Shown here: one piece after another, positions 13,370 through 57,762 of the stretch
Layout of the letters: each line of letters begins with the position of its first letter
Position numbering within the stretch: position 1 is the stretch's first letter
NCBI GenBank assembly: GCA_910584815.1
Contig: CAJUBT010000008.1
Location: 1 to 57,762, forward strand
Direction of reading: 5' to 3'
DNA length: 57,762 bases
Source of the DNA: an uncultured Christensenella sp.
GTDB taxonomy: Bacteria; Bacillota; Clostridia; Christensenellales; UBA1242
Translations under genes and position numbers: made by a program
The notes under the pieces: generated by a model
Databases searched by the model: none
Told to the model about the DNA's origin: nothing
Seen by the model: only the letters and a program-made list of their open reading frames with translations

Positions 13370-13373
13370 AATT

Positions 13374-13406: not shown

Positions 13407-13438
13407 ATTAACTTAAATTGTTATTTTAGTTATAAATT

Positions 13439-40518: not shown

Positions 40519-40595
40519 TGGTGCACCCTAAGGAGTTCGAATCCCTAACCTTTGGTTCCGTAGACCAACGCTCTATCCAGTTGAGCTAAGGGTGC
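40519..40595 (-). tRNA. tRNA-Arg (anticodon ACG), CCA encoded
   Basis: Reverse complement folds as acceptor GCACCCT/AGGGTGC and anticodon arm TTGGT-CTACGGA-ACCAA, with T loop TTCGAAC-like and 3' CCA. Followed (leftwards) by a GCGAACC/GGTTCG hairpin plus T run. Confidence 0.88.
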
Positions 40596-41154
40596 ATAAA
40601 TAATATTTTTATCAAACTATTGGTTATTGTAATAAAAATAATATAAGAACTTAAAGTAAAGATTTATGTTTTAGTAGTATTATTAATTAAAATTTTTTAA
40701 TGTAATAAAATTTTAAAGGAAATATATCTATAAATTATTATATAGCATAAATTAAGTTATTGCAAATTTTTATTTAGTATATTAATAATTTTAATTAAAT
40801 AACAAACCATAATATAGAAATTTGTTTATAGTTATAAGTTAGGTTAATAGGGAATAATAAAAATAATTGTCTTTAAATTTACAACTAAATTTGTTATAAT
40901 ATATTTATATATCTATTATATAAAACAAAAATTAATAATTCTATTTAAACTCAACCAGTTTATTTTATCATTAAAGTTTTAATAAATCAAGTATCTTTAT
41001 TTATTTTTCTTTGTTCTAAGTTAAAATTGTTATAGGTTGCACAAAAATATATAAAAAACAATAAAAAAATTAAGTTTGCACTTGAATTATTTTATAAAAG
41101 GTGTAGAATAAATACAATTACCAGAGTTTTTTAATAAAAAGGTGGTGTATAAAT

Positions 41155-42639
41155 ATGGTAGATTTAACAACCGCAGTTATTATGGCTGGTGGCAAAGGCA
41201 CAAGGCTTGCTAGTGTAACAGGTGTGTTGCCAAAACCAATGGCTAAAATTAGAAATTTAGAACAAACTGGGCATAGTTTAGATGCAGATGATACTATTCT
41301 AGCGCATCAAATAGATTTATTGTCGCAAGAAGGCATAACAAATTTTATTCTAGTAGTGGGCAATAAAAAAGGCTTCATTCAAGATGCCTTTACAGATGAG
41401 AAAATTAATGAATTATTACCTGATAGAAACATTTCTATTAGGTACTTTGAAGAGCAAGAGCAGAACCCTTTAGGTACAGGGGGCTCTTTTTGTTCTAAAG
41501 ACCTTCAACGAATGATTGGTCAAGATGACTTTTTATTAACTTACGCTGATGTACTGTTTGATATAAATATTCAAGATATGTTTAAGTTCCATAAGCAAGA
41601 AGGTGCAGATGCAACAATGTTAGTTGGTGCTTGTAAGGAACCAGATGATAGAGTTTTGTGTTGCCTAGGTGATGATGGTAGCGAAATTACAAGGCTTATA
41701 CCTAAACAAGGGAAAGGAGAAGCTCCAAGAGGATGTGCATTTCCTAACATTGCAAGGAATGGAATTACAATTTTTAATTCAAGTTTATTTGAAACTTTAC
41801 CACAAGAATGTACTTATATGGATATGGAAACCGACATTTTAACTCCTATGGTATATAATCCTAAATACAAAGTTTGTGCTTGGAAAACTCCTTGTTATGT
41901 AAAAGACATTGGAACAGTTGACAGATACTTTGAAGGAGTTTCAGATTTACAGGAGGGTATTCCTCAAGCTAAAAATCCTGCAAAAACAGAACAGTCTTGC
42001 GTTATATTTAGAGAACAAGATTTAATTAACGATGGAAAGTTAGACATTGATTCCGCAAGGGCAATAGAAGAACTTAACGAAAAGGGTGTTATTGTTGGTT
42101 TACAATGTGTTGAAAAAGTTTTGCCAAAAGAAACAACCATAGGGGAAATGGCAATTGACACCGCTCTTAATCGTCAAGGTAAAGGCGCTTTTGTTAACTT
42201 TAAATTTGGTGAAGAAGACATTGCTCCATTAGTTAAGGCTATGGAAGAATGGAATATTTCTCAGGAAAGAACTTATGTTATAGAAAATGCCATAGGTTAT
42301 GGATATTTAGTTTCCAATTTTTCAAAAGGGGACCAATCTTTTCAATTATCTCCAATTTCTGCTACTTATCAAATTTTACAAACAATAGAAAATCAAAAAA
42401 CTCAACAAGAATTAATGCAACACGATTCGCAAGTGTTTGGAGAACTACAAACTATGTTTGGCATTTCTCAGGAAGATACTACTATGAATACAGAGGAAGT
42501 TACAGATATGCCAGTTGACATTGCAGCTATAGAAAATATTGGAAGAGAACATACTTCATACGGTGAAACAAATGCTGCACAAGATGTTAGACTTATGCAG
42601 TCTGTTCTTCAAGGACCTGTTGAAGATATGAACAAATAA
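41155..42639 (+). CDS. Sugar-phosphate nucleotidyltransferase fused to a ~240-aa C-terminal domain (possibly degenerate HAD-like)
   Basis: 494 aa with AAGGTGG RBS and N-terminal MAGGKGTRL...LPKPM motif. The C-terminal half has no catalytic motif I can recognise. Confidence 0.65.
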   Translation: MVDLTTAVIMAGGKGTRLASVTGVLPKPMAKIRNLEQTGHSLDADDTILAHQIDLLSQEGITNFILVVGNKKGFIQDAFTDEKINELLPDRNISIRYFEEQEQNPLGTGGSFCSKDLQRMIGQDDFLLTYADVLFDINIQDMFKFHKQEGADATMLVGACKEPDDRVLCCLGDDGSEITRLIPKQGKGEAPRGCAFPNIARNGITIFNSSLFETLPQECTYMDMETDILTPMVYNPKYKVCAWKTPCYVKDIGTVDRYFEGVSDLQEGIPQAKNPAKTEQSCVIFREQDLINDGKLDIDSARAIEELNEKGVIVGLQCVEKVLPKETTIGEMAIDTALNRQGKGAFVNFKFGEEDIAPLVKAMEEWNISQERTYVIENAIGYGYLVSNFSKGDQSFQLSPISATYQILQTIENQKTQQELMQHDSQVFGELQTMFGISQEDTTMNTEEVTDMPVDIAAIENIGREHTSYGETNAAQDVRLMQSVLQGPVEDMNK

Positions 42640-42757
42640 TTTTTGTTAAAAATAAAAAAAAGACAAGGCAAAACCGTTTTAAATGTCTTGTTTTTTTATT
42701 TTCTAAATTGTATAATTTTATTATTATTGTTTTATTTTAAAGGGAGAATATATACAA

Positions 42758-43645
42758 ATGATTGATATGCACATTCACACAAAAAATTCAGATGGAATTT
42801 ACAATGTTGCAGAAATTTTAGAAATGGCAGAACAAAAGAAATTAGACTATATTTCGTTTACAGACCACGATAGAGTAAGTGCTTATGAAGAATTAAAAGG
42901 TATTGCAAAAAAAGCAATTTTTTCTGGCAAAATTATTCCTGGATGTGAACTTAGGTTTGTTTACGATAAAACACAATTTGAAGTTTTGTGTTATGGTTAT
43001 GATTATGATAAATTTAGTAAATCTTATTATGTTTCAGTAGATGCCTATATAAACATTAAAAAAGGTATTTTAAAAAATTGTCTTGAAAAGGGTAAACTTC
43101 TTGGGTTTGTATATAATAAAATAGAATTTCACCCAGAAACAAAACCTGAAAAAGATTTTTATATGGAAATTATAAAACACGAAGAAAATTTGCCAATTCT
43201 TCAAAAATATGACATTAAACATTCAGGTGAATTTTTTAGAAAACTTATTGCAAATAAACAAAGCCCAATGTTTTTTGATGCCACCGATTATTCTTTGAGT
43301 TTTGATGATGCTGTGGATTTTGTTCACGAATGTGGTGGAATTGCAGTTTTAGCACATCCATTTGGCGTTTATCAAATAGAAGACCCTAAAAAACTTTTAA
43401 GCGAACTCCTAGCAAAAAATAAATTAGATGGTTTAGAATGCTGTCACGCGGATATTACTACAGAACAAAGCGAGTATCTACTTGATTTATGTAAAAAACA
43501 TAATTTAGTATCTACAGGTGGAAGCGATTTTCACGGTTATCCTGGTCAATCTTTTGCAAAGTGGAACAAAGGCTCAAAAGATATTGAAACTAAATTAATA
43601 GACAAATTCTTAGAAAAAATAGATAAAAGCAAAATAATAGATTAA
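42758..43645 (+). CDS. PHP-domain phosphoesterase
   Basis: 295 aa with AGGGAG RBS. Motifs DMHIHTKNSDG, AHP and GGSDFHG. Confidence 0.8.
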   Translation: MIDMHIHTKNSDGIYNVAEILEMAEQKKLDYISFTDHDRVSAYEELKGIAKKAIFSGKIIPGCELRFVYDKTQFEVLCYGYDYDKFSKSYYVSVDAYINIKKGILKNCLEKGKLLGFVYNKIEFHPETKPEKDFYMEIIKHEENLPILQKYDIKHSGEFFRKLIANKQSPMFFDATDYSLSFDDAVDFVHECGGIAVLAHPFGVYQIEDPKKLLSELLAKNKLDGLECCHADITTEQSEYLLDLCKKHNLVSTGGSDFHGYPGQSFAKWNKGSKDIETKLIDKFLEKIDKSKIID

Positions 43646-43986
43646 CTTATGGTACTTTTTTCTAAAATAAATTTAGTAAAAATAAGTTTATTACATTGTA
43701 ATTAAAATTACATAGAATCATTTAACAGAAATTATTAAAATGCTTTGTGGAATAGAAACTAAAAAATACTAAGAACTTATAAATATAAATAGGTTAAGGT
43801 GTTAATTCTTTAAAAAATAATTATAATTTTTTGCTTCTTTTTAATTTTTAAATTAGTTAAGATTTATGTTAATTTGATTTTTAAACTATTTGTTTATTAT
43901 AACTCAAAACTGCAATCAGTAGAGTGTGCTTGTTTCAATATGTTAGTTACTTTTAAAAAAAATAAATAATAAAGGTTTTTAAATTT

Positions 43987-44433
43987 ATGGTTAAAATTAT
44001 CGTTTTAAGTGATTCTCACGGAAATAAAAAAAATTTAGAAAGTTTACTTGAAACCTCTAACTATAATTATGTTTATTATTTGGGCGATGGTTTAAGGGAT
44101 ATAGAAAACTTTTGTGAAACCAATATTAAAAAAGTTTGTGGCAATTGTGACCATTTTTCAAACGAAGCAGTTACAAGATATGAGAAACTGGAAGGTTTTA
44201 AAATTATGTTAACTCACGGTCACGATTTTAAAAGTAAGTTTACCAAAGCATTAATGTTAGAAAATGCAAAAAATAATGCTTGCGATATTGTATGTTCAGG
44301 GCATACTCATAAACAGGGTATGGAATATATTGATGGTATTTTATTTATAAATGGTGGTGCGTTTAAAAATAATCAATATGCTGTTTTAACTCTACAGCAA
44401 AATCAATCTCCGCAGGTAGAGTTCTTTAATTAA
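43987..44433 (+). CDS. YfcE/MJ0936-family metallophosphoesterase
   Basis: 148 aa with motifs VLSDSHGN, GD, LTHGH, SGHTH. Confidence 0.8.
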   Translation: MVKIIVLSDSHGNKKNLESLLETSNYNYVYYLGDGLRDIENFCETNIKKVCGNCDHFSNEAVTRYEKLEGFKIMLTHGHDFKSKFTKALMLENAKNNACDIVCSGHTHKQGMEYIDGILFINGGAFKNNQYAVLTLQQNQSPQVEFFN

Positions 44434-44440
44434 ATTATTT

Positions 44441-44475
44441 AAAACATATAGCAAAGCCTTGTTATATGTTTTTTT
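44441..44475 (+). terminator. Rho-independent terminator
   Basis: Stem AAAACATATA/TATATGTTTT with 12-nt loop, followed by a T run. Confidence 0.55.
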
Positions 44476-44943
44476 GTTATAGAAAGTTAAACCTTTTCTT
44501 TAAGTAGCTTTTAATGTATTTTATAGTTTTTATTTGTGCATTTAAATATAAATAAAATATTAAATATCTTTTAATTAAATTTGCTTTTTCTATTATGCTT
44601 TTAACCTTTTATTATGTCGTAAATAATTTTAATTAAAAACTACTTTTAAAATTTATTATAATAGAATTACTTTAAAAATGTTTTATTATTAAAAAAATAA
44701 AAATAGTGTTGTTAAACTTAGCAACATTATTTTTTATTATAAAAATTTTAATTTGTTAATTTTACTAATAAACTATTATTCCCATAATTATTAATAAGAA
44801 TAGTTCTTATAAAGTTTACGCATAATAAGAGCAACTCCAATAACATTAAATAATAAATACGAATTTTTCTTATTTATTAAAAATAAAAATTCTAAAATTT
44901 GATAATAATGCGAAACTATATAAAATTATAATAAGGAGAGATT

Positions 44944-45288
44944 ATGAGGCTAAAGGAAATTAGAAAGCAAAAAGGTTTAAAACAAAATAAAGTAGCTCAA
45001 GATTTACAAATTAATGTTGTAACCTATAATGGCTATGAAACTGGGAAAAGCGAACCTAACATTCAAATTATATTAAAACTAGCAGATTATTTTAATGTTA
45101 CAACAGATGAACTTTTAGGGGCTCAAAGCAAACTTCCAACCCTTAGCGAAAAAAGTGCCTTACTTGGAAGAGTAAACCAGTTAACTGAAAACGAATGCCA
45201 CAAATTAAACATTTATGCTGAAGCACTTATGTTTGCAAGAGTTGAACATAAAGACAAAATAAATAAAATTATTAGAGATGAAGAATAA
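44944..45288 (+). CDS. XRE-HTH protein, DGR-adjacent paralog 1
   Basis: 114 aa with AAGGAGAG RBS. N-terminal HTH_3-like region and conserved C-terminal LTENECHKLNIYAEAL. Confidence 0.8.
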   Translation: MRLKEIRKQKGLKQNKVAQDLQINVVTYNGYETGKSEPNIQIILKLADYFNVTTDELLGAQSKLPTLSEKSALLGRVNQLTENECHKLNIYAEALMFARVEHKDKINKIIRDEE

Positions 45289-45608
45289 TGAAACTAAAAG
45301 AAATAAGAAAAAAACTTAAAATAAATCAAGATGAACTTGCAAAGGTTTTAAACACAACGCAGCATACAATTTCTAATTACGAAAACAATAAAACTCAACC
45401 AAGCATAGAAGACATTGTAACTTTAGCAAAGTTTTTAAATGTAACAGCAGATGAGTTGCTTGGAATGAATGTAAATAACGAAAATTTAATTGAAAGAAAC
45501 TTGCTATTCAAAACAATTAATGGCTTAACCGAAAGTGAATGCCATAAGTTAAATATATATGCAGAGGCATTAATAACTGAAAGAGAAATATATAAAGATA
45601 AAATTTAA
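45288..45608 (+). CDS. XRE-HTH protein, DGR-adjacent paralog 2
   Basis: 106 aa. The start overlaps the previous stop (TAATG). Same two-part architecture (LTESECHKLNIYAEAL). Confidence 0.8.
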   Translation: MKLKEIRKKLKINQDELAKVLNTTQHTISNYENNKTQPSIEDIVTLAKFLNVTADELLGMNVNNENLIERNLLFKTINGLTESECHKLNIYAEALITEREIYKDKI

Positions 45609-45630
45609 AAGAAACTAAAGAAGAGATAAA

Positions 45631-45993
45631 ATGAATTTAAAAGAAATACGAAAAAGAAATAAAAAGAATCAGAAAGAAGTTGCAGATTTTTTAAATGTTA
45701 TGCAATCTACCTATAGCGGATATGAAGTTGGTAGGGTGGAAATGACGGGGGAAACAATTATAAAATTATCTAACTATTTTAACGTTACAACCGATGAACT
45801 TTTAGGGGTAAAGAGAGAAGAAAAAACATTAACTCAAAAAAATACCCTTATGAATAAAATTAACAATTTAACAGAAAATGAATGTTATAAATTAAATGTC
45901 TATGCAGATGCTTTAATTATAAACAGAGAAGAACATAAGCAAAAAATTAACAAACTATTAACGGAAGAAAATGAAAAATTAACAAATTTTTAA
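45631..45993 (+). CDS. XRE-HTH protein, DGR-adjacent paralog 3
   Basis: 120 aa with the same architecture (LTENECYKLNVYADAL). Confidence 0.8.
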   Translation: MNLKEIRKRNKKNQKEVADFLNVMQSTYSGYEVGRVEMTGETIIKLSNYFNVTTDELLGVKREEKTLTQKNTLMNKINNLTENECYKLNVYADALIINREEHKQKINKLLTEENEKLTNF

Positions 45994-46063
45994 GCAATTT
46001 TAAAAATTAAATTTTAACCTATAAAAAATTTATAAAATAAATAAACTTGATAAAACCTAAAAT

Positions 46064-46101
46064 AACCCAAAATTTCTAAACAATTTCTGGGTTGTTTTTT
46101 T
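46064..46101 (+). terminator. Terminator-like hairpin between HTH triplet and RT
   Basis: AACCCA...TGGGTT imperfect stem followed by T7 (46095-46101). Confidence 0.45.
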
Positions 46102-46167
46102 ATTTAATTAAACAAAATTTAAATATTAAATTGGAATATAATCAATAAAGTTGTATATTAAAAATAT

Positions 46168-47316
46168 ATGATAGAAAACCGTTTCAACGAAGTTTTTAGT
46201 TTTGAAAATTTATATAAAGCCCACCTAAAAGCAAGGCTTTCTAAAAGAGATAAAAAAAGCATTGTAAAATACGAAATGGAATTAATTAGTAATTTGTATG
46301 ACCTATATAAAAAAATTCAAAATGGAACTTATAATATAGGTGTTTATAGCAAATTTATTGTTTACGAACCCAAAAAAAGACAAATTCAAACTTTGAATTA
46401 TTACGACCGAATTGTTCAGCACGTTTTATGTGATAATTTACTTATGCCTTATTTTACAAAGCGTGCTGTTTTAGATAATTGTGTTTGCCAAGTTGGGAAA
46501 GGCACTCACTTTGCCCACGACCGATTAAAAGCAAATTTGCATAAATTAATTAAAAAAAATTCTAATGACATTTGGTGCTTAAAGTGCGACATAAAAAAAT
46601 ATTTTCCAAGTTTGCCCCATAAAAATTTAGTTGAAACTTTTTGCAAGCATATTAGAGATGTTAACTTAAAAAATATGGTGGCGCAGATTATTGATAGTTT
46701 TCATACCAGTGAGGTTTTTCTTAAAAAACATAACATTTCACCACTTGGTTTAACAAAAACAGAAAGGGGGATTCCTATTGGCAACCAAACCAGCCAAGTT
46801 TTTGGAATGTTTTACTTAAATAGTTTAGACCGTTTAGTTAAGGAAAAATTAAGGATAAAAGTTTACAGCAGATATATGGACGATTTTTTGTTGTTTAGTG
46901 AAAGTAAAGAAAAATTAACATATGCTTTTAAACATATTAAGGAACATATTAAAAATATAGGTTTACAATTAAATTCTAAAACTCAAATGTTTCCGTTAAA
47001 AAATGGATTTAATTATTTGGGTTTTAATTATTCAGTTACCAAAACTGGTAAAATTTTAAAAACAATAACAACAAAAACTCGTAGAAGAATGAAATGGAGA
47101 GTTAGATACCTTAAAAAACTATATGAAGCAAAGCTAATTAATTCTGAACGGGTTGAAAGGTCGTTAGTTGCTTTTCACGGCCATTTGTGCCACGCAAAAT
47201 GTTGGTACTTAGAAAACAAACTGAGAAATGGGCTAAAACCAATGTTGCCGAAAGAAGTTTTTGAACGAGCAATAAAAAGTAAGAAAAAGAAAACTAAAGC
47301 AGTTATGTTAAAATAA
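46168..47316 (+). CDS. DGR reverse transcriptase
   Basis: 382 aa. Has the DGR-diagnostic motif 4 IPIGNQTSQVFGMFYLN (SQ rather than SP) and catalytic YMDDF. Also FENLYKAH...KRDKK, YEPKKRQI and DRIVQHVL. There is no SD. A promoter-like TTGGAA-17-TATATT ends 8 nt before the ATG. Confidence 0.9.
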   Translation: MIENRFNEVFSFENLYKAHLKARLSKRDKKSIVKYEMELISNLYDLYKKIQNGTYNIGVYSKFIVYEPKKRQIQTLNYYDRIVQHVLCDNLLMPYFTKRAVLDNCVCQVGKGTHFAHDRLKANLHKLIKKNSNDIWCLKCDIKKYFPSLPHKNLVETFCKHIRDVNLKNMVAQIIDSFHTSEVFLKKHNISPLGLTKTERGIPIGNQTSQVFGMFYLNSLDRLVKEKLRIKVYSRYMDDFLLFSESKEKLTYAFKHIKEHIKNIGLQLNSKTQMFPLKNGFNYLGFNYSVTKTGKILKTITTKTRRRMKWRVRYLKKLYEAKLINSERVERSLVAFHGHLCHAKCWYLENKLRNGLKPMLPKEVFERAIKSKKKKTKAVMLK

Positions 47317-47393
47317 AATATTAAAAAAATATTAAGTAAGAGAAGAATAAAAAAGCCAAGCATAATTATAAAAAGGGAAATGAATAGGTGACA

Positions 47394-47473
47394 ATGTGCT
47401 GTTAAATTTTAAACTATTAAAATTTAATGCAAAATTAAAATTTTGCCTAAAACCTTTGGTTTTAGCAGCACAT
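47394..47473 (+). other. Structured RT-avd intergenic element
   Basis: A 13-bp closing helix ATGTGCTGTTAAA/TTTAGCAGCACAT has one U-G wobble that is valid only on the + strand. It encloses the hairpin GCAAAAT-TAAA-ATTTTGC. Confidence 0.35.
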
Positions 47474-47522
47474 AACTGCCAACAACTAACCACTAATTAC
47501 ATAAGATAAGGAGAATAAATAA

Positions 47523-47921
47523 ATGGATGAAAATAGGGTTGCAAGAACATTAATATCTCACGATAAAAGCAAAGATATGGCTGTGTTCACCCACGCCAAA
47601 AAATTAAGCGAATATATTTTTGTTATAACCGAAAAATCTCCTAAAAAATTAAGATGGAGTATTATAACAAGAATGCAAAACATATCGGTTGAAATTATAG
47701 AAAACCTATACCGTGCAAACTTAGAAAGGGGAGAACTTAGGGTAGAATATCAAAAGCGTGCCTATGTTAATGTGCAATTGCTAGACTATTATGCCTCTAC
47801 CGCAAAAACAATGCAAGCAATAAACAATCACCAAATGTTAGTGCTTGGCAAGAGCTTGCTAGATGTTAAAAAATTGTTACTAGGTTGGGTTAAAGCAACT
47901 AAAAATAACCTTTCAACCTAG
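47523..47921 (+). CDS. avd: Avd-like accessory variability determinant (four-helix-bundle, 23S rRNA IVS protein family)
   Basis: 132 aa with AAGGAGA RBS, basic and helical. The pattern F.HAKKLSEYIFVITEK.PKK.R.SI..RMQN.S.EI.EN..RAN is typical of Avd. Lies adjacent to the RT. Confidence 0.8.
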   Translation: MDENRVARTLISHDKSKDMAVFTHAKKLSEYIFVITEKSPKKLRWSIITRMQNISVEIIENLYRANLERGELRVEYQKRAYVNVQLLDYYASTAKTMQAINNHQMLVLGKSLLDVKKLLLGWVKATKNNLST

Positions 47922-48168
47922 TTGAGAACTTAATATATAATATATTATATATAATAACTATATAATAATATATCCTATTTATATAAACCTATTTATATAA
48001 ACCTGTTAGTAATTAAGTTTGTTGGTTTATTGTTAAACTTATTTTAAAATAAATTTTTAAATAAGTTTGCTGAGTTTTGTTGTAAAAATTTTATATATAT
48101 GTTTGCTTGTTTTTTTTTTAAGATAGTTAAATTAACTTATTGCTTTTTTTTTAAAAAATTTTAAATAT

Positions 48169-48201
48169 TGTGCTATAAACTTAAATAGCACAAATTTTTT
48201 A
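48169..48201 (+). terminator. Terminator after avd
   Basis: 9-bp stem TTGTGCTAT/ATAGCACAA with 8-nt loop, then ATTTTTT. Confidence 0.55.
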
Positions 48202-48251
48202 TGTGCCAAAAAAACAAAACAAACCTACAAAACAATGTTTTGTTAAAATTA

Positions 48252-48475
48252 CCTTAAAGCCTCACCGCACCGCCGAAACTTAAAAAAACAAAATTTTATT
48301 TTTTTAGGCTTTTTGCTTGCTAATGCCTCAAAACAAAATTTAAAATTTTTGCGTTGTGACAAGATGAGGCCACATTCACCCTCGCCATATTCTGTTGGCA
48401 ATTAGGTAGGATAGAAACCCCTTCACCACAAATCAATATCGGCTTAACTGTTATAAATAGTTAAGAACAGGAATT
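48252..48475 (-). ncRNA. Structured RNA island 1 (3' of TR-1 in the TR sense)
   Basis: GC-enriched block in an AT-rich spacer. Conserved core AGGTAGGATAGAAACCCCTTCACCACAAATCAATATCGGCTTAAC. Helices GCCTCA(48259)/TGAGGC(48365) and CTTAACT(48443)/AGTTAAG(48459). Confidence 0.5.
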
Positions 48476-48783
48476 TAACACTTTTAACATTGTTGTTGGT
48501 TTATAAAAAAAGTTTGCTCCTATATTTTATAGTTTTAAAACCATATGTAAAGTTTTTAAATCTGTAAACTTTTTTTGCCTTTTATAAACTTAAAACCATA
48601 AAAACTTAAAATATATTTTATTTAAAAATTTAAAAGTTTGTTTTTATAAACATACTTTTTTTAAAATATTCAAATTTTAAAATTTTTATAATGCTTTTAA
48701 ATTTAAAACTTTTAAAGACTTGTTAAAAAATAAAAAGCAAATTAGGAACCATATTTTTTTAAACCTTAACAAATAAAAAGGCG

Positions 48784-48904
48784 GTGAAGCGCGGGACGAA
48801 CGGCGTTAGAATTGTGAACGTTGTTATTACTCCAATCAGCGCCAGAAGGGTTGAGTATATACGCATTGTTAGCATTATTGTTGTTGCCAGACCGCAACCA
48901 CGAA
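48784..48904 (-). repeat. DGR template repeat TR-1 (intact, no cognate VR in window)
   Basis: 121 nt with the same 18-nt and 22-nt end blocks as the VR. 12 in-frame AAY codons and no stop. Differs from TR-2 at 17 internal positions. Confidence 0.75.
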
Positions 48905-49338
48905 AGAAAGAGAAAAAGGCCCCGACCTAATTACAAGGTTTTTACCCCTTAATATAAAACTATCATAAAACTTTAAATTATGTAAAACATAATAGTTTTA
49001 TTTTTTTTGATTATAAAATAAATTTTTAAAATTTGTTTTGAATTGTTCAGCTTTTTTAGTTTTTTATTGTTTTTTTAAAAAAATGCTTTTACAAAAAAAC
49101 TAATTAAAAACAAATGCAAAACAATTTAAAAAACTTAGCCTTAGCATTATATAAAACTTTTTTTAAATTTTTTTATTTATAAAAAACACAAAATTTAAAA
49201 TAAAAAAAGGTTTAATTAACAATTTAAAGCATTTTTTAAATGCACATAAAAGGTTTAGCAAAAAAAAATTAAAAGCCTTTAACCTTTATGCTTTTTTATT
49301 TTTAAATTTGCTTAAAGTTTTAAAAAAACTGAATAAAA

Positions 49339-49565
49339 AAAGCCCTACCGCACCACCACCTTAGTTACTAAAAAAAATTATTAATTTTTTTAGTAAGGGC
49401 TTTTGCTCACACCCCAAAACAAAATTAACTTTTGTGTTGGAGTAAGGTAAGGCAATATTCACCCACGCCACATTTATTTTTTGTTGGCAAGCAGGTAGGA
49501 CAAAAATCCCTTCACCACAAATCAACTTCGGCTTAACTGGTGTTAATAGTTAAGAACAGGAAAAA
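49339..49565 (-). ncRNA. Structured RNA island 2 (3' of TR-2 in the TR sense)
   Basis: Same core as island 1. Helix GCCCTACC(49342)/GGTAAGGC(49446) is C:A on the + strand but U:G on the - strand. Hairpins at 49414-49440 and 49532-49554. On the - strand the last helix is followed by U7. Confidence 0.55.
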
Positions 49566-49743
49566 CCCTTTTAATGCACCATTTAAAAATAAACTAGGTT
49601 TTTTTTAGGCTTTAAAACTTAAAAGTTTTGTTAAGTTTTTAACCGCTAGCACAAGCACTTAAACTTGTTTAAAAATTTTTGCAATAAAAAACTTAAAACA
49701 AAAAAAGTTAGTTGCCATAAAATAAACCTACACATTAAAAGGT

Positions 49744-49864
49744 GGTGAAGCGCGGGACGAACGGCGTTAGTATTGTTGACATTATTATTACCGTTACTAG
49801 CGCCAGAAGAATTGAGATTGTAAGCATTGTTAGCATTATTGTTGTTGCCAGACCGCAACCACGA
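49744..49864 (-). repeat. DGR template repeat TR-2 (cognate of VR 53016-53136)
   Basis: Its reverse complement aligns gap-free with the VR. 18 mismatches, 17 of them at TR adenines. 15 in-frame AAY codons. Confidence 0.9.
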
Positions 49865-50283
49865 AAGAAAGAGAAAAAAGACTCCAGCCCAAAATACAGA
49901 TTTCTGCCCCTTATTAAAACTTTATCACAAAACTTTAACCTTTAGCAAATGTTAAACCTTAAGTTTTAACTGTTTAATAAAAGCTTTTAAAAATAATCTT
50001 CGTTTAAATTTGCAAAAGTTTGGTTTTTTATACCTTAGCTTTTAAATTAAAAAACTGTGTTCAAAAAATGTAATTTAAAAAAGGGTTTAAGGTTTTAAAA
50101 AAACAAACCCCAACTTAAAACAAATAAAAACTATTTTTTTAAAACAACAACATAAGTTTGTAATTTTTTTAAAAACAACTTTTAAATTGTAAATTTTGGT
50201 TAAAACATTTTTTAAAAAATATAATAAAAAGTGTTTTTTATAACTTAAAAATTTTTTGGCATTTTTTAAGCTTTAAATAAAAA

Positions 50284-50552
50284 AAAGCCCTACCACAAAA
50301 AAGGCTTTAAAAAAAAATTTTAAGATTTTTTTGTAAATAACTTAAAACAAAAAAATAATTTTGCGTTAAGTTAAGGTAGGGCAACCTTCACCCTTCTTTT
50401 AATTTAAAAATTGTTTTTTAAAAAACCTTTTTTTTAAATTTTGCTTTTTATTAAAACAAACCAAATTAAAAGTGGCGGGTAGGATAAAAACCCCTTCACC
50501 ACAAAATCTAATCGGCTTAACAAACATTTTTTATGTTTTGTTAAGAGCAGGA
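50284..50552 (-). ncRNA. Structured RNA island 3 (divergent, with ~90-nt AT-rich insertion)
   Basis: Perfect helix GCCCTACC(50287)/GGTAGGGC(50375), extended 12-bp CTTAAC.../...GTTAAG hairpin (50516-50545), and conserved GGTAGGATAAAAACCCCTTCACCAC. Confidence 0.45.
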
Positions 50553-50831
50553 AAATAACTGCCTTTTAAAATTTTACTAAATTGTGGCTTGCGGCAAATT
50601 TTTTAAACTTGCTTTGTTTTTTAATTAATAAAATTAAAAATTAATTGTTTTAAATTCCATTTTAAAACTGGAGTTTTGTGGCAACTAACTTTTTTTGTTA
50701 AGCCCTTTTAATTGCTTTAAAATGCAAATTTGTTAAGGCTAAAACCTTAGTTAAAACAACACAACTTGTCAACTAAATTTTTTTTAAAAAAAACAAGCCT
50801 GTAAAAAAAGCAAACCTAAACTTTAAAAGGT

Positions 50832-50950
50832 GGTGAAGCGCGGGACGAACGGCGCTAAACGCACTGCAGCAAAACACCCTAAGAAAGTGCGCCAGAAGAA
50901 AAACAAAAAGCGTGGCGGGAAGCCTACTAGCAGCCAGACCGCAACCACGA
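50832..50950 (-). repeat. Degenerate TR/VR-like copy 3 (adenine-poor, indels, in-frame stops)
   Basis: 119 nt. Both end blocks are identical to TR-1, TR-2 and the VR. The central 79 nt have only 7 sense-strand adenines, several TAG codons and a length difference of -2. Confidence 0.7.
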
Positions 50951-51938
50951 AAGAGAAAAGGAGAGAAAAAAGCCCGAAACTTAATTTATGATTTTTACCC
51001 TTAACTTTAACTTACCACACCTTAAAAACCTTAAACAATTTAAAGGCAATAAAATGTTTAAGATATTTACAACTTAAATAAATTTAAACTTTTTTATTAA
51101 AAACTCAACTGTTTTAATTTTTTTAAAAAACAAATTTAAATGCTATTTTTAAAAAATAATTTTAAACCAAATTTTAAAAACAAAAAATTTTAACTTTAAT
51201 TTGCTTTAAAAACAAAAATTAAATTTTAATGCTAAAAAATAAAAGTTAAACTTAAACAAAGTTCCTTTAAGCAATTCTAGATATTTTTTAATTAAATGCT
51301 AAAAATTAAAATCTCCTATTTTTTGCTTTTTAATTTAATAAGTTATAAAGTTTATAAACCTATTTTTAATGCTTTTATAACAATTTAAAAATTTGCCTTT
51401 GTTTTGTTTAAAAACTAAATTTTGTTAAAGGTGCAAAAAACTTTTTTTGCAAACTTAGGCTATAATTTATTATTTTAAAATATTTATAAAATAAATAAAA
51501 TAAGCCCAAAAAGGCAAAAAATGTTGGTAAATATTAAAAAAACTATCTATTTTTGTTGTAATTTTGCTTTAATTTATTTATAATTAACAATGTAAAATAT
51601 CCAAAATTTGCCAATTTTAAACTTTGTTGCTTATAAAGGGTTTTTTTAAATTTTAAAACAATTAAAATTAAAACTTTTAATTTAAAAATTTAATTTTATT
51701 TTAAAAAGCAATTTAAAAGTTTTTAAACTTAGTTCTTTTTAAATTAATTTTAAAATTTTTTGTTAAAGTTTAATTCCTTACTTTTAGTTTAGTTTTAATT
51801 GCTTGTTTAAGAAAGTTGCTTTTGCTGCAACAAGTTTAACAGTTTTTAGTTTAGTGCTAACTAACTAAACCCATAAATTTTACAAATTTAATAAATGATA
51901 GGATAAATTTTTTATAAAAAACTAAGGAAGGATTTAAT

Positions 51939-54900
51939 ATGAAAAAGTTATTTTTGAGTATAAGCACTTTTTTTGTTTTTACGCTTTTAACATTAAGCGT
52001 TTTTTTTGTTGACTTTAAACCAGATATGGCTAAAGCCTTTAATTCCGAAAACACTACCACCGCAGTTAAGGTAGATGAAATTTGGAACGACACCGCAAAA
52101 AAATTTGATGATGATAACCTAACAAAACTTTTGCAGTTTGTTACAGGCAGCAACACTGTTAGAACAAACAACCTAAGCACCGTTAAAACACAGGCAACCA
52201 ACAAAAAAACAGCCAGTGCAATTAGGGGCACAGCAGTAACTGCCAGCACCGATGGTGCAGTTAAAACTGCAAGTAAAGATATTATTGTAACATTAGGCGG
52301 GTTAGACTGGACCCCTGTATATTTAAGTAACGATACCTCCTCAAACCCAATTTTAACCTTATGGCTAGCAAACTCTAGCCAACTTAATGGCAAAAAATAC
52401 TACACAAGTAACACAGCATCTTCTTCCTTTGGTTCAAGTGGCTCAGCAATGTGGAATAGTGGTTTTACCCCTTGGACAACAAGTGCAGATGGGAATACTT
52501 ACTATTATAACGATTCTGCAACTCCTGCTTCATCCTATCCAGACAATATGTATGGTATGAGTGCAATAAGAAGCACCGTTTTAAACAATGGAGGTTCTTA
52601 TTCAACTGCACATATGGGTAAAAGCACCGCTACTATGAGTAAAAAGAGCGATAGTGTTTTTAGCAAATTCACAGTAACCACTTCAAATTCCACTGCCATT
52701 GCAGACTATTTAACTGTGCCAACAAATGTTTCTTGGCAAAAAAGTGGGCAAAATTTATCAAAAACTTGGTTTAGTTACCAAGCACCAAGTGAAGATTTGC
52801 AAACTGGCGTAAACACCTCTACTGCAGGTTATTATACAACAACATCTTATGTTTCTAATGGGCAAACTGCAAGTATGAATTATACAAGTAGAAGCAATTA
52901 CACTCAATGGAGTAACGATCGTTTATGGCTTCCTTCAGTTACAGAGACGGGCTACGATGACACACATATAGGCATTTGGAGCACTACAACTGAACAAAGG
53001 TCGAACACGCAGTGGTCGTGGTTGCGGTCTGGCTACTACTATCCTGCTAGCAGTGCTTACCATCTCCTTTCTTCTGGCGCTAGGTACGGTTTTAATATTG
53101 TCAGCAGTACTTACGCCGTTCGTCCCGCGCTTCACCTTAATCTAAACTCGGCTGCGGCGAACACAATTAGTGCTATAGACATTAACACTTGCGTGGTTTC
53201 AAACTTAAGCAATAGTCAATGGAACCCAGTAAGCAACCCAATTCCAACCTTCACACTTAAAACCCCAGATGGTAAAACAACATTAACTAAAGATACCGAC
53301 TATACTGTAACTTCTTCTTCAACCAGTGCACCTGGCACTATAACTTTAACAATCAAGGGGAAGAGCAGTAAATATGAAGGCACAAAAACTGTAACCTATC
53401 AACTTGAAAAAAGAAGCATAACCCGTGCGTTGAGAGACAACACCTTGAGTGTTGCCAACCAAACTTGGACGGGTGAAAACCTCACGCCCGCGTTAAGCGG
53501 GCTGAAAGACTACGCCTATAATGCCGACACTGGTGGCAGCAAACTTAGCACAACAGGCGTAGCCTTAACCCAAAACACACACTACACCCTTAGTTACACA
53601 AACAACAAAAACATAGGCACTGCAACCATAACAATAACTGGGGCAGGCAACTACACTGGTTCAACAAGTGTTAACTTTAACATTGTTGCTGTGGATATGA
53701 GTTTAATTACGGTAGATGCCGTTGAAGATAGAATTTGGAACCCAGTAAGTAACCCAATTCCAGAAATTGTGGCAAGATACACAGGTGCAAACAAAACCTT
53801 AACCACCGCCGACTATACTGTTACAAGCTCTGCAAAAACCGATGGCACTGCTGTGCCTGGCGAGGTTACTTTAACCATAACAGGTAAAGGCAACTACACT
53901 GGCACAAAAACTGTTAAATATATGTTAAACCGCCGAGACATTGGCTTGGCATTAATGGGTAACACCCTTACTGTTGCCAACCAAACTTGGACAGGAGAAC
54001 GAATTGAACCTGTTTTAACAGGCTTAAAAGACTATGGTTACCAAACCTTAACAAGCCAAACTCCGCTAAGCCCAACAGGCGTTCCTTTAACCTACAACAC
54101 TCATTATGTGTTAAACTATACTAATAACATAGACCTTGGCACTGCAACTGTAACAATAACAGGCAATGGGGTTTACTACACTGGCACAACCTCAACTGCC
54201 TTTACCATTGTTGCGCGCAGCATTGCCGATGGCACATTAAGTTTAAACCAAACTAATTTAGACTATAATTTTGGTGAAGATTTACTTCCAAGCCTTGTTG
54301 CAACCTTAGAGGTTAACAACAAAACTTTAACCACAAGAGATTACGACCTTTCTTACTATTCTCCAACAGGCAGTGCTGTTACAAAAATAACCGATGCAGG
54401 CACCTACAAAGTTAGGGCAACAGGCAAAGGCAATTATACAAGTGCAAAGGAAATTAATTTTGTTGTAAGCAAACTTGCATTGCGTGAAGAATTTTTTACA
54501 ATTAGCCCAAGCAGTTACGAATATAAAAATTCTCAAATAATTCCTACCTATACTGCAAGCTACACCTACACTGCTGGCAAAACCTATAATTTTAGACCTA
54601 CCGATTTTTCTGTAACCTATGGTGAAAATGTTAACGCTTCAACAGGCGGAACAGTAACTTTTACAGGTGCAGGCAGTAATTTTGAAGGCACTGTAATTAA
54701 AAAATTTACAATCACAGCAAAAAGCATTAGTGCAGGCGACATTACAAAACCAACAATTCCAAGCCAAACCTACACAGGCAGTGCAATAACTCCAAGTTTT
54801 ACATTAACCGATGCAACTCTTGGGCGTGCCTTAGTTAAGGATGCCGACTACACTGTAACCTTTACAAACAATGTTAATGTTGGCGAAAGCAGTGCTGTTG

Positions 54901-57762
54901 TTAAAGTTACAGGCATAGGCAACTATGCTGGCGAAACTGCATTAAGTTTTGAAATTACTCCAAGAAGCATTACTCTTGTTAATATTGCCGAAATTCCAGA
55001 CCAATCTTTTACAGGGTTAGAAATTACACCTGTGCTTAACATAACCGATAATGGTGCAAGTTTAATTAAAGATACTCACTACACTGTAACCTTTGCAAAC
55101 AACATAACAGTTACAAACAGTTCCATTAAAGCAAGTGCAACTCTTGTTGGGGTTGGTAACTACGAAGGCACAACAGTTGTTTATTTTAACATTATTCCTG
55201 TTAACATTAGTGGGGCAATATTTAGCCTTGGCAGAACTTTAATTACTGGTTTTAACTACGAGGAAGATTTTTTAAGTGAAATTCAAGAAAATGCAACTTT
55301 AAAAATTAACACAACCGTTTTACAAAAAAATGTAGACTATAAAATTAGTGCCTTGAATGCCGACAAATCTGCCGAAATTGGCAACATTGTTAACATTGGC
55401 AAATACATTATTCGTGCAACTGGTTTAGGTAACTTTATTGGCACAAACGAAATTGAATTTGAAGTTACAAAAAGAGATATTTCTCAAGATGACATTGAAA
55501 TTGAATTAGACAGCAAAAACAACGATTTTACATATAATGGTGAAAGCCACGAAGCAACAATTAAAGTTTTTGGTAACTACACAATTAAAGGCGTGCAAAA
55601 ACGCAGCGAACTTGTTGAAAACCGCGATTATACAGTTAGTTACGATGAAAACACAAACGCTTCAACCTCTGCCCGTGTGTTAATAACTGGTATTGGCAAC
55701 TTTACAAGCGTTAAAACTAAAAACTTTACAATTAAAGCAAAAATGCTAGATGGGTTAGACATTGTTTTGGAAAATGATATTCCTAACCAAGATTATACTG
55801 GCACAACTCTTTCTCCAACCTTTGTAATTAAAGATAATACTCTTAACCTAGTTTTAGCACAAGGCACTCATTATAGTGCTACTTATACAAACAACACCAA
55901 TGCTGGAGAGGCAACTATAACGCTTACAGGTATTGGCAACTATGGCGGAACAAAGGTTTTACACTTTAACATTTTACCAAGAGATATTTCTCTTGCAACA
56001 ATTTTAGAAATTCCAGACCAAGTTTACACATCTTCTAACATAGAACCTGTTTTAACAGTAACCGATAATGGCAGAAATTTGGTTAGAGGGGTAGACTATT
56101 TAGCAACCTTTAAAAACAACATAAATGTTGGGCCTGCAGGCAGTGCTCAAATAACCATTAATGGTATTAATAACTATCAAGGCAAAAAGGATGCTGTGTT
56201 CACAATTCTCCCTGCCGACCTTGCCGATGCCAGATTGGAACTTTCTCCTGCAAGCAGTGTTTACACTGGCAAAAGTGCAGTTACTTCCATAAGGGTTATT
56301 ATGAACGAAAACAACGCTGTTGTGGCAGACAAGAACTACCAAATAACCTATTTAAAGGGCAGTCAGGTTTTAAGTGGCATAGAGGACCTTGTTGATGTTG
56401 GAACTTACACAATAAGAATTTCAGGTCAATCTAACTACGAAGGCACCATTCAAGAAAATTTTGTTATCACTCCTTGCAATATGCAAGATGTTTCTGTGTT
56501 GCTTTCAAGTTCAAGTTTTGTGTATAACCAAAGTTCACAAACCCCAGTTGTAACCTTAAGTTACAATGGTTTAACATTAACAAGTGGCACAGACTATATT
56601 TTAACCTATCGCCAAACAAATGAAAGTGGGGCTACAGTTACTCATCCAACAGATGTTGGCACATATGCAATTATTTTAGAAGGTAAAGGTAACTATCAAA
56701 AAACCAATTCAAGTTTAAGTTTTGAAATTACTCCTGCAAGTTTAAACAAAGGTGCAGTTGCAACATTCTCTTCTGACCCAGCAACCGCAAACATAACCTT
56801 TGATAACAGCACTCACAAAATAATTCTTTCTAGCCTTAAAATTAATAATGTAGAATTCTTCAGTGGTTTTGAGGGCGAATATGCAACCGTTTCTTACCTA
56901 AGAGAAAACGAAGAAACCACAAACTTTATCAATGCAGGAACAATAACAATTAAAATTTCTGCAGTAGAAGGTAACAGTAATGTAATTGGCGAAAAAACTT
57001 ATACCTACGAAATTAAGCGTAAAAATTTAGCAACTGCAGACAGCAATAAGCAACTTTTAATTACAGGTATAGAAAACAAAGTTTACAACAGAAATGCACA
57101 CACTCAAAATGTTGTTATCAACGATACCGTTGCAGATTATGCTTTAACAAGTAACGATTTTTCAGTAACCTATTCAACCAGCTGTATTAATGCCGAAGAA
57201 GACATTGTAATTTACATAAATTCAAATGCTTCTGGTAACTATAGCGGAACAATAACAAGAACCTTTAACATTGAAAAAGCAATTGTAAACAATTTTGTTC
57301 TTTTATCTACTGGTGCAGTTTATTCTGCAAGGCCACAAGTTATAGAAGTAGAAGTTAGGGCAGGCAACATTGAACTTACACCTAGTGAATATAAGTTAGA
57401 ATATAAAAGAAACAATATTGTAACAGAAGACATTACTAACATTGGCGATATTTCTGTTGGGCTTATAATTGTAAGCACAAACTTTAAAATTGAAACTCCA
57501 ATTGCAAGTCAGAATTACACAATTTCTAAAATTACAATAGATAGTGTTACTCTTACAAACAATAATGTTGGCTATAATGGTGAAACTTATGTTATAGATA
57601 TTTCTAGCGTTGTTGGTGAAGGCGGAGTTGTTTTAAAAACAACCGATTATATTGTTTCCTACACCGATAAAGATAACAACGCATTAACAAATAACGAAGT
57701 TGTTAAGGCAGGGGTATACACAGTAAAAGTAACAGGTGTAGGCAATGCACAAGGTAGCAAAA
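51939..57762 (+). CDS. DGR target: giant surface protein (partial, >1941 aa) with N-terminal variable ligand-binding domain and tandem Ig-like repeats
   Basis: ATG at 51939 with AAGGAAGG RBS and signal/TM MKKLFLSISTFFVFTLLTLSVFF. The frame is open to the window end, which is why it is missing from the ORF track. The VR encodes SWLRSG...AVRPALHL at aa 360-400. After that come repeats of type ..YTG..I.P......G..L..DTDYTVTY.NN.N.GTATV.ITG.GNY.GT....F.I. Confidence 0.85.
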   Translation, partial: MKKLFLSISTFFVFTLLTLSVFFVDFKPDMAKAFNSENTTTAVKVDEIWNDTAKKFDDDNLTKLLQFVTGSNTVRTNNLSTVKTQATNKKTASAIRGTAVTASTDGAVKTASKDIIVTLGGLDWTPVYLSNDTSSNPILTLWLANSSQLNGKKYYTSNTASSSFGSSGSAMWNSGFTPWTTSADGNTYYYNDSATPASSYPDNMYGMSAIRSTVLNNGGSYSTAHMGKSTATMSKKSDSVFSKFTVTTSNSTAIADYLTVPTNVSWQKSGQNLSKTWFSYQAPSEDLQTGVNTSTAGYYTTTSYVSNGQTASMNYTSRSNYTQWSNDRLWLPSVTETGYDDTHIGIWSTTTEQRSNTQWSWLRSGYYYPASSAYHLLSSGARYGFNIVSSTYAVRPALHLNLNSAAANTISAIDINTCVVSNLSNSQWNPVSNPIPTFTLKTPDGKTTLTKDTDYTVTSSSTSAPGTITLTIKGKSSKYEGTKTVTYQLEKRSITRALRDNTLSVANQTWTGENLTPALSGLKDYAYNADTGGSKLSTTGVALTQNTHYTLSYTNNKNIGTATITITGAGNYTGSTSVNFNIVAVDMSLITVDAVEDRIWNPVSNPIPEIVARYTGANKTLTTADYTVTSSAKTDGTAVPGEVTLTITGKGNYTGTKTVKYMLNRRDIGLALMGNTLTVANQTWTGERIEPVLTGLKDYGYQTLTSQTPLSPTGVPLTYNTHYVLNYTNNIDLGTATVTITGNGVYYTGTTSTAFTIVARSIADGTLSLNQTNLDYNFGEDLLPSLVATLEVNNKTLTTRDYDLSYYSPTGSAVTKITDAGTYKVRATGKGNYTSAKEINFVVSKLALREEFFTISPSSYEYKNSQIIPTYTASYTYTAGKTYNFRPTDFSVTYGENVNASTGGTVTFTGAGSNFEGTVIKKFTITAKSISAGDITKPTIPSQTYTGSAITPSFTLTDATLGRALVKDADYTVTFTNNVNVGESSAVVKVTGIGNYAGETALSFEITPRSITLVNIAEIPDQSFTGLEITPVLNITDNGASLIKDTHYTVTFANNITVTNSSIKASATLVGVGNYEGTTVVYFNIIPVNISGAIFSLGRTLITGFNYEEDFLSEIQENATLKINTTVLQKNVDYKISALNADKSAEIGNIVNIGKYIIRATGLGNFIGTNEIEFEVTKRDISQDDIEIELDSKNNDFTYNGESHEATIKVFGNYTIKGVQKRSELVENRDYTVSYDENTNASTSARVLITGIGNFTSVKTKNFTIKAKMLDGLDIVLENDIPNQDYTGTTLSPTFVIKDNTLNLVLAQGTHYSATYTNNTNAGEATITLTGIGNYGGTKVLHFNILPRDISLATILEIPDQVYTSSNIEPVLTVTDNGRNLVRGVDYLATFKNNINVGPAGSAQITINGINNYQGKKDAVFTILPADLADARLELSPASSVYTGKSAVTSIRVIMNENNAVVADKNYQITYLKGSQVLSGIEDLVDVGTYTIRISGQSNYEGTIQENFVITPCNMQDVSVLLSSSSFVYNQSSQTPVVTLSYNGLTLTSGTDYILTYRQTNESGATVTHPTDVGTYAIILEGKGNYQKTNSSLSFEITPASLNKGAVATFSSDPATANITFDNSTHKIILSSLKINNVEFFSGFEGEYATVSYLRENEETTNFINAGTITIKISAVEGNSNVIGEKTYTYEIKRKNLATADSNKQLLITGIENKVYNRNAHTQNVVINDTVADYALTSNDFSVTYSTSCINAEEDIVIYINSNASGNYSGTITRTFNIEKAIVNNFVLLSTGAVYSARPQVIEVEVRAGNIELTPSEYKLEYKRNNIVTEDITNIGDISVGLIIVSTNFKIETPIASQNYTISKITIDSVTLTNNNVGYNGETYVIDISSVVGEGGVVLKTTDYIVSYTDKDNNALTNNEVVKAGVYTVKVTGVGNAQGSK
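53016..53136 (+). repeat. DGR variable repeat (VR)
   Basis: In frame with the target CDS. Identical to the TRs at 18 nt on the 5' side and 22 nt on the 3' side. Internal differences from TR-2 are almost exclusively at template adenines. Confidence 0.9.
53166..54224 (+). repeat. Internal tandem duplication of a two-domain (~175-180 aa) unit in the target gene
   Basis: Units 53166-53705 and 53706-54224 share DNA-level blocks (e.g. GGAACCCAGTAAG.AACCCAATTCCA; GTTGCCAACCAAACTTGGAC) and colinear protein sequence. Confidence 0.6.

Follow-up and report, generated by a model that had tools for sequence, protein, structure and literature searches.

In the diversity-generating retroelement (DGR) of phage BPP-1, the template repeat (TR) is followed by a Spacer (Sp) RNA (Handa et al., NAR 2018, PMC6182149; bioRxiv 10.1101/2023.10.23.563531). 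Cryo-EM of BPP-1 has Sp47-56 paired with TR117-129, A56 being the primer and G117 of TR the base that is copied first; after a linker of two nucleotides, Sp59-70 pairs with the RNA just upstream of TR, which is the end of avd, to form the 'cPRT Stop' duplex, after which come a short stem-loop and adenosines that make A-minor contacts (10.1101/2023.10.23.563531). Sp further contains a single-stranded 'thumb ring' and a long stem-loop that binds the reverse transcriptase (RT), and a stem-loop that binds Avd (accessory variability determinant) lies directly past TR (10.1101/2023.10.23.563531). In retrons, as in BPP-1, a structured RNA by the RT gene supplies an internal 2'-OH primer for cDNA made from the same transcript (PMC5737381; 10.1101/2023.10.23.563531). 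Weinberg et al. (2017) described the motifs RT-1 to RT-19 near RT genes, of which RT-10 lies in the BPP-1 TR-brt spacer (PMC5737381), and, in the portion of Table S3 of 10.1101/2023.10.23.563531 that we drew on, many Bacillota DGRs are given with duplexes between an upstream AGGG... and a downstream ...UCCU, with a stem-loop followed by (U/G)AAA and with a stem-loop just past TR. Here we analyze a stretch of 57,762 nt (the window) from contig CAJUBT010000008.1 (GCA_910584815.1) of an uncultured Christensenella sp., in which a DGR with three TRs carries three structured RNA islands, and we consider it probable that every island acts in cis as the 3' domain of a DGR template RNA of its own and corresponds to BPP-1 Sp.

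The window is a segment of a bacterial genome with a low G+C content (about 25-30%), and its 57.8 kb hold three TRs, situated between avd and the target gene, and one variable region (VR). TR2 (49744..49864, minus strand, 34 A) is the cognate template of the present VR (53016..53136, plus strand, within the target gene), to which it is 85% identical; because 17 of the 18 mismatches between them fall at TR2 adenines, TR2 is taken as the donor of the present VR and the minus strand as the RNA sense of the templates. TR1 (48783..48903, minus strand) is an adenine-rich alternative template (31 A) with 17 differences from TR2 that have no A bias, and TR3 (50832..50950, minus strand) is an adenine-depleted template copy of 119 nt, with 8 A and with stop codons in the frame in which the VR itself is stop-free. 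TR3 is 2 nt shorter than TR2, and 24 of the 36 mismatches between the two are at TR2 adenines (p = 3e-10). The VR and all three TRs have identical 18-nt 5' ends and identical 23-nt 3' ends.

On the 3' side of each TR, and on the same strand, lies one island. Island 1, assigned as the Sp-type domain of the TR1 RNA, occupies 48259..48473, island 2 (TR2 RNA) 49342..49562 and island 3 (TR3 RNA) 50287..50552, with E-values of 4.7e-20, 3.6e-17 and 8.7e-12, respectively, against a hidden Markov model (the family HMM) made as an nhmmer profile that was seeded from the three islands and then iterated. An initial annotation, made from the sequence of the window, had described three conserved islands with a common core, richer in G+C than the spacer and 175-305 nt from the TRs on their 3' side, and this description is borne out: a 44-nt core is common to the three at 86-89% identity (islands 1 and 2 match over 87 nt at 86%), the G+C fraction is 0.37, 0.38 and 0.26 in islands 1, 2 and 3 as against 0.15-0.24 in the flanking spacers, and the gaps between TR end and island start, measured again, are about 309, 181 and 279 nt. 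The value for island 3 is lower because about 60 nt of A+T-rich sequence are inserted within it. In the order of the RNA, island 1 consists of hairpin C (48441-48467), a primer strand GUGGUGAAG (48421-48429), a stop strand (48408-48421), a stem-loop and then AA (48377-48407), helix A (48365-48371 with 48259-48264) and hairpin B (48324-48362). The same parts are found in island 2 at 49530-49556 (hairpin C), 49510-49518 (primer strand), 49497-49510 (stop strand), 49460-49496 (stem-loop), 49446-49454 with 49342-49349 (helix A) and 49410-49445 (hairpin B), and in island 3 at 50514-50547 (hairpin C, with an extended stem), 50494-50502 (primer strand), 50481-50494 (stop strand), 50389-50480 (stem-loop, which holds the A+T-rich insertion), 50375-50383 with 50287-50294 (helix A) and 50338-50374 (hairpin B). 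All of these are on the minus strand, and helices A, B and C are in every copy where the initial annotation had placed them.

The conserved core, which reads GUGGUGAAG-GGG(G/A)UUUYURUCCUACC in RNA sense, is two strands that pair outside the island and not an internal helix. The primer strand, identical in all three islands, is, in every module of the window, complementary to the final 9 nt of the TR (CUUCACCAC): island 1 faces the TR1 3' end CUUCACCGC (48781..48789, 9 bp including one G.U), and islands 2 and 3 face the identical 3' ends of TR2 (49742..49750) and TR3 (50830..50838) with 9 bp each. The stop strand starts 1-3 nt past the primer strand, and its partner is a leader situated 25-45 nt before the TR. 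In module 1 the leader is AAGGGGUAAAAACC (48937..48950, minus strand), which pairs with its own stop strand at -14.0 kcal/mol, better than 95% of foreign leaders; in module 2 it is AAGGGGCAGAAAUC (49899..49912, minus strand; -18.1 kcal/mol) and in module 3 UAAGGGUAAAAAUC (50990..51003, minus strand). Between modules 1 and 2 the changes are compensatory, with ACC/GGU becoming AUC/GAU and UA/UA becoming CA/UG. A module has, in RNA order, a promoter-like site, a leader of the form AAGGG(G/.)UAAAAAYC, the TR, a first hairpin P0, hairpin C, the primer strand, the stop strand GGG(G/A)UUUYURUCCU, a stem-loop and a long branched 3' stem made of helices A and B, with a U-run at the end of this stem in modules 2 and 3.

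Homologues of the islands were sought in 80 loci that were fetched with the RT protein from species-representative genomes (RT identity 43-58%) and selected solely for a related DGR RT. All but one of the records are of gut Clostridia type and nearly all are metagenome-assembled genomes (Christensenella-like, 'Borkfalkiaceae', Anaeroplasmataceae), the exception being L059, which is filed under Alistipes finegoldii. The family HMM gave 108 matches in 67 sources, made up of 105 homologues in 66 of the 80 loci together with those of the window, and no match in 1.35 Mb of unrelated DNA, so that the islands do co-occur with DGR RT genes. Of the 14 loci in which the HMM finds nothing, five have long flanks at both ends; in the remaining nine the sequence extends for less than 1.2 kb beyond RT on the downstream side or, in a single case, for only a little way upstream of it. 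In all 66 related loci that carry them, the homologues adjoin a TR, and in most relatives they follow avd on the strand of RT. Measured from the TR 3' motif GCGCTTCACTC, wherever this could be located, the match begins about 20-65 nt, usually 21-42 nt, further on. Relatives often hold tandem arrays of the whole module with a period of about 350-400 nt (six modules in L003, seven in L004 and four each in L023, L025 and L065).

Two scans with exact patterns were also run. The matches to GTGGTGAAGGGN{6,8}TCCTACC in metagenome contigs were judged to be chance, and among the listed matches to TGAAGGGN{7,10}GTCCTGCC in viral contigs none was confirmed by the family HMM, from which the absence of the family in phages does not follow. 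Both scans together gave 0 confirmed of 174 listed loci, which is the reason for that judgement, and they are usable as a negative control only.

Conservation of structure was measured on a MAFFT alignment of 80 whole modules, leader to terminator, of which 77 come from 52 loci and three from the window. The structure tested comprised the RNAalifold helices and the two long-range helices (47 pairs), and pairs were counted on the alignment. Paired cells make up 91.1% of the total, compared with 78.4% after shuffling of partners (0 of 500 shuffles as high) and 39-51% when partners were slid. Changes on both sides occur in 32 of the 47 pairs, including 8/8 pairs of helix A, 11/11 of helix B and 6/6 of hairpin C, and thus the compensatory changes that the initial annotation had seen among three copies extend to the homologues. 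There are 507 G.U cells family-wide, and the pairing of 91.1% in TR sense falls to 79.7% on the opposite strand, which, with the adenine mismatches between TR2 and VR, sets the RNA strand as that of the TR; the claim of a minus-strand RNA in the window, based on a helix A pair of copy 2 that is C:A on the plus strand but U.G on the minus strand (a reading we confirm), is upheld on this wider ground. Since the helices covary and the G.U cells fix the strand, the islands are real, conserved, structured RNA in TR sense.

Both long-range complementarities are found throughout the family. The leader motif is AGGGCGAAAG... in most relatives and of the AAGGGGUAAAAACC type in the window, and a duplex between leader and stop strand, mostly of 12-16 bp and in dozens of different sequences, is predicted in 80 of 80 aligned modules; 7 of its 14 columns covary despite some misregister in the alignment. 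When partners were swapped between loci, the own leader gave -18.2 kcal/mol against -12.9 for foreign ones and was the better in 49 of 52 loci. For the primer duplex, the family-wide columns (CUUCACUC with GAG.UGAAG) are 96% paired over the 80 modules. Column-wise covariation is uninformative here because the columns are almost invariant; the lineages that deviate change both strands, with CACCAC/GUGGUG in the window and L021 and UCACCUU/GAGGUGA in L036, and in the partner swap the own TR end was better in 44 of 52 loci, the window's own beating every foreign one. With both duplexes in the BPP-1 order and with the covariation, the suggestion of the initial annotation that the islands are a functional equivalent of the BPP-1 spacer RNA gains support, and its description of them as much larger proves overstated, the family domain being about 190-215 nt as compared with 140 nt in BPP-1.

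The stem-loop right after the stop strand has GG..AA columns that are at least 90% conserved and is followed in the family by GAAA or GAAU; individual folds have AAAC in a relative and AAUG and AAUA in modules 1 and 2 of the window. The automatic measures of this stem-loop and of the terminal U-run were poorly designed, and the alignment consensus and individual folds were relied on instead. The family consensus includes a U-run after helix A, and in the window helix A runs into U7 in copy 2 and into U8 in copy 3, a terminator-like end that the initial annotation read correctly; copy 1 has only UUUAAGGUAAUUUU and no proper U-run. These U-runs raise the question of whether the islands are merely signals for termination or processing of TR transcripts, with no role in priming. 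Such signals would have no need of about 200 conserved nucleotides, of invariant single-stranded motifs (UUCCCGUAU, GAAGGG, GGCGAAA) or of the two long-range duplexes with TR end and leader; moreover, the loop that helix A closes is branched and about 100 nt long, a consensus terminator scan of the window did not flag the helix, and in module 1 the U-run is missing, all of which makes a purely terminating function very improbable.

The islands look detached from their TRs because the first hairpin after the TR, P0, carries an A+T-rich expansion of 170-300 nt. In module 1 P0 spans 48479..48781, with closing strands at 48764-48781 and 48479-48495 and an insert of G+C 0.16; in module 2 (49567..49742) CCUUUUAAUGUG closes with UGCAUUAAAAGG, and in module 3 (50562..50830) CCUUUUAAAGUUU with AAAAUUUUAAAAGG, in each case around the insert and on the minus strand. 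Minimum-free-energy folds close P0 around the insert in all three segments, and it is at the position homologous to the 6-bp P0 hairpin of the relatives; 74 of 76 modules from relatives have this hairpin, formed by 36 different stems. In those 76 modules the island directly follows the TR. Between the TR and the start of the stop strand there are, in relatives, 71-117 nt (median 77 nt), against about 230-360 nt in the window. The initial annotation was thus right to call the islands detached as regards the linear sequence of this genome, but the term does not apply to the relatives. As a separate observation, an 18-nt sequence, AAAAAAAGTTAGTTGCCA, is exactly repeated in the P0 inserts of modules 2 (49700-49717, plus strand) and 3 (50679-50696, minus strand), has a third copy with 2 mismatches in module 3 (50767-50784, minus strand), and sits inside a 42-nt inverted match of 81% identity.

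An insert of this length could also be taken to mean that the island acts in trans or at long range and is not one folded unit with its own TR; the insert would then separate two transcripts or be a long flexible tether, the island would reach a TR solely by way of the two duplexes, formed between molecules, and one island could serve any of the three TRs. The P0 inserts do hold U-runs and some promoter-like hexamers, the primer strands of the window are identical, as are the 3' ends of TR2 and TR3, and several relatives have island-less TR-like copies beside island-bearing modules: 5-13 copies in six loci (L007, L015, L023, L031, L046 and L060) and 2-3 in four (L012, L014, L064 and L066), with starts 150-370 nt apart. 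L007 has ten such copies at 11690-13536, 150-190 nt apart; no long open reading frame (ORF) covers the array (in L023 a mechanical ORF of 227 aa, 11850-12533, overlaps the array start), every copy keeps the complement of the stop strand, and most of the 3' ends (UUCAACU) pair bulge-free with AGUUGAA of the island. In the window, however, every TR has its own island, the duplex between leader and stop strand has module-specific compensatory changes, the closing helices of P0 are kept at the homologous position, and promoter-like sites in the region are no commoner than in shuffled sequence. We therefore regard action in trans or at long range as unlikely, and prefer a cis-acting domain that belongs to the RNA of its own TR.

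In relatives, the AGGG leader is preceded at about 7 nt by a promoter of the form TTGnnn-17-TATAAT, which itself comes immediately behind the U-run before it. The modules of the window have weaker equivalents of this promoter: TTTACA-16-GATAGT before the leader of module 1 (48986-48959, minus strand), TTGCTA...TGtGATAAA in module 2 and TTGTTT...GGTAAGT in module 3. Judged from its sequence, each module looks like a separate gene, which would give three tandem minus-strand RNA genes.

At the gathering score, Rfam returned no family but tRNA in the window and four relatives, and E-value scans of the window islands gave only chance-level matches (E <= 5-10). This result would suit an independent RNA of a new class (a regulatory small RNA, or an antisense RNA from the plus strand) or a decayed coding fragment, for example of avd, that stands beside the TRs by chance; a 27-nt stretch of islands 1 and 2 does resemble avd codons 17-26 with 74-81% identity. 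Such an origin is most improbable when set against a position directly 3' of TR that is fixed in the 66 related loci carrying the island, a strand that the G.U pairs fix as TR sense, the complementarity of the island to TR end and leader, and covarying helices, which would be unexpected in a pseudogene. The likeness to avd, between 47572-47598 (plus strand) and the plus strand of islands 1 and 2 at 48361-48387 and 49444-49470, is probably chance, since the islands of the relatives (consensus GGCGAAAC) do not have it. Nor did the L003 island go without any counterpart in Rfam: positions 5762-5893 (plus strand) are collinear with RF02921 (RT-14), a motif linked to RT genes, at 29.4 bits (gathering score 48.1) and E = 0.05. 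The island of L003 spans the whole RT-14 model, with a hairpin, CAG, AAGGG...UCCU, a small hairpin, AAA and a long hairpin; on the other side, its score is below gathering, the window islands have no match, and the model includes neither the TR end nor the leader partners. None of the other nine relatives scanned at an E-value threshold matched RT-14 at E <= 1 (for three more, only the gathering threshold was applied). The collinearity suggests that RT-14 may be the spacer RNA of a sister DGR clade.

Compared with BPP-1 Sp, the islands likewise lie 3' of the TR, on the TR strand, and are linked to RT and Avd, and they have a hairpin after the TR, a primer strand, a stop strand, a stem-loop with adenosines and a long 3' stem in the same order; in both, the base 5' of the paired TR segment is G. 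P0, expanded in the window, and the second hairpin C after it are by analogy the candidates for an Avd-binding stem-loop, and the long, covarying helices A and B are the candidate for the stem that binds RT. The islands differ from Sp in having no detectable sequence similarity to it, in having two hairpins (P0 and C) between TR and primer strand where BPP-1 has one, and in a 3' domain that is a branched helix A/B/D and also looks like a terminator. Upstream they pair with a non-coding leader that is preceded by a promoter-like site of its own, whereas BPP-1 uses the end of avd; the primer strand ends in G (GAAG) and not in an A such as A56; it is 223-351 nt from the TR end in the window and about 46 nt in BPP-1; and the window has three copies of the element, all on the strand that does not carry RT. 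The Bacillota DGRs taken from Table S3 have the same AGGG... upstream and ...UCCU downstream (about 11-16 bp), the same stem-loop and (U/G)AAA after the duplex and the same hairpin just past TR, but there the downstream strand starts between 23 and 98 nt past the TR (45-98 nt in every row used but one), and those rows are predictions from one sequence at a time, which the covariation over 80 modules reported here supports. With retron msr/msd RNA the islands would share, by analogy, a structured RNA beside the RT gene as the source of an internal 2'-OH primer; they have neither flanking inverted repeats nor the conserved branching G in a retron-type context, and the RT is a DGR RT, accompanied by Avd, by a TR/VR pair and by mismatches specific to adenine. 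Because the same elements are present in the BPP-1 order, the islands are read as the spacer-type cis domain of this DGR lineage and not as a new RNA class, the alternative which the initial annotation had put forward and which these matches to BPP-1 Sp and to the elements predicted for Bacillota DGRs do not support. They are most likely a known kind of element in a variant form, triplicated and distanced from the TR by an A+T-rich insert.

On the model of BPP-1, closure of P0 in the TR RNA would bring the island beside the TR despite the insert. The primer strand would then pair with the last 9 nt of the TR and set a spacer nucleotide, at GAAG|G, beside the first templated base, the G of ...GCG|CUUCAC, from which the RT-Avd complex could prime cDNA synthesis in cis. 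The stop strand would pair with the leader and loop out the TR, so that synthesis would end at the leader duplex, and the hairpins and the 3' stem might dock Avd and RT.

Several results weigh against this assignment. The function of the islands is deduced from architecture and covariation, and transcription, protein binding, the priming nucleotide and termination we infer by analogy. The primer duplex is nearly invariant, with 0 of 8 pairs changed on both sides and no column-wise covariation; some modules have mismatches in it (C.A in L011/L025 and in L042), and L007, L021 and L036 have A at its first TR position. Duplex energies taken alone are no better than those of shuffled strands, while the position of the best site did discriminate. 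RNAalifold also gives a local hairpin GGGG/UCCU that overlaps part of the stop strand and is conserved without covariation; it may be an alternative state of the stop strand. The z-scores of the P0 folds are modest (-1.4, -1.4 and, for module 3, -2.9), and for this reason closure of P0 in the window is put forward as a prediction, with support from its homologous position. To these are added the poor U-run of module 1 and the Rfam result at gathering score given above.

About 100 natural variants of the spacer RNA provide independent evolutionary support for the two-duplex architecture of primer and stop, so far seen by cryo-EM in one phage only, and they indicate which parts of the RNA tolerate change. 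That the first hairpin after the TR can absorb an insertion of 170-300 nt bears on the engineering of DGR RNAs, and, as the family is outside Rfam at threshold, a curated model would improve the annotation of DGRs in gut Clostridia.

More unusual than the islands themselves are the provision of one VR with three self-contained TR-RNA genes and the adenine-depleted TR3, and, if functional, this multi-cassette organization is of higher interest than the island. From the pattern of its mismatches, TR3 looks as if it were a TR copy overwritten by mutagenized cDNA or by VR, and adenine-poor cassettes recur in the arrays of L020, L025, L004 and L063. TR1 encodes an adenine-rich scaffold other than that of TR2, and several templates may therefore serve one VR. 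A literature search of DGR surveys found no multi-TR arrays, which does not prove them undescribed. We offer only tentatively, as a possibility that we hold to be rather doubtful, that the locus is a cassette system in which a number of self-contained genes for TR-spacer RNA, all with the ends of the one VR, compete for it. In such a system the adenine-rich TR1 and TR2 would write two different diversifiable scaffolds; the adenine-poor cassettes (TR3 and those of L020, L025, L004 and L063) look like TR copies that once received the product of mutagenic homing, and would write a fixed or even a null allele. Recognition of the TR by the spacer would go through two programmable duplexes and may therefore act over hundreds of nucleotides, and one spacer may be enough for 2-5 consecutive TRs without islands in L023 or for 10 in L007. 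The three TR-spacer genes for one VR, each with a promoter-like site of its own, and the relatives with many TRs per spacer suggest that DGRs can hold several templates, and DGR finders that expect one TR per RT would miss such loci.

The protein genes of the DGR are on the plus strand, convergent with the minus-strand TR-RNA modules. The RT gene is at 46168..47316 (Pfam RVT_1, E = 2.2e-20) and the gene for Avd at 47523..47921 (Pfam bAvd, E = 7.9e-10; 39.6 bits, against a curated cut-off of 40). Downstream of avd, at 48168-48193 (plus strand), a terminator-like hairpin and then a T-run face the end of module 1, so that termination of the RT-avd operon and of the TR-RNA genes seems to be convergent. 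The target gene, by ORF reading, starts at 51939 on the plus strand and continues past the end of the window without a stop codon. Its protein (51939-57762) has more than 1,940 residues, with an N-terminal DUF6273-like domain that carries the VR at about residues 360-400 and long internal repeats after it, a position unlike the usual C-terminal one of a VR.

A search of protein databases for closer relatives gave only the same species (98.5% identical, with contigs that end inside the array) and very short contigs. The second strain (L255, Logan SRR33518548, and L256) is 98.5% identical to the window over 40560-48892, and its contig ends inside TR1, where the repeated modules probably broke the assembly. 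In this strain island 1 differs only by 48326 C>T, which turns a U.G into a U-A pair in helix B; no change falls in TR1 and 11 fall in the flanking A+T-rich DNA, a pattern that is consistent with constraint on island 1 and is not significant. Directly upstream of RT, at 44944-45993 (plus strand), are three tandem paralogous small genes, and the two of them that were scanned against Pfam both match HTH_3 (Cro/C1-type). The second strain (L255) has the same arrangement, with HTH_3 in all three.

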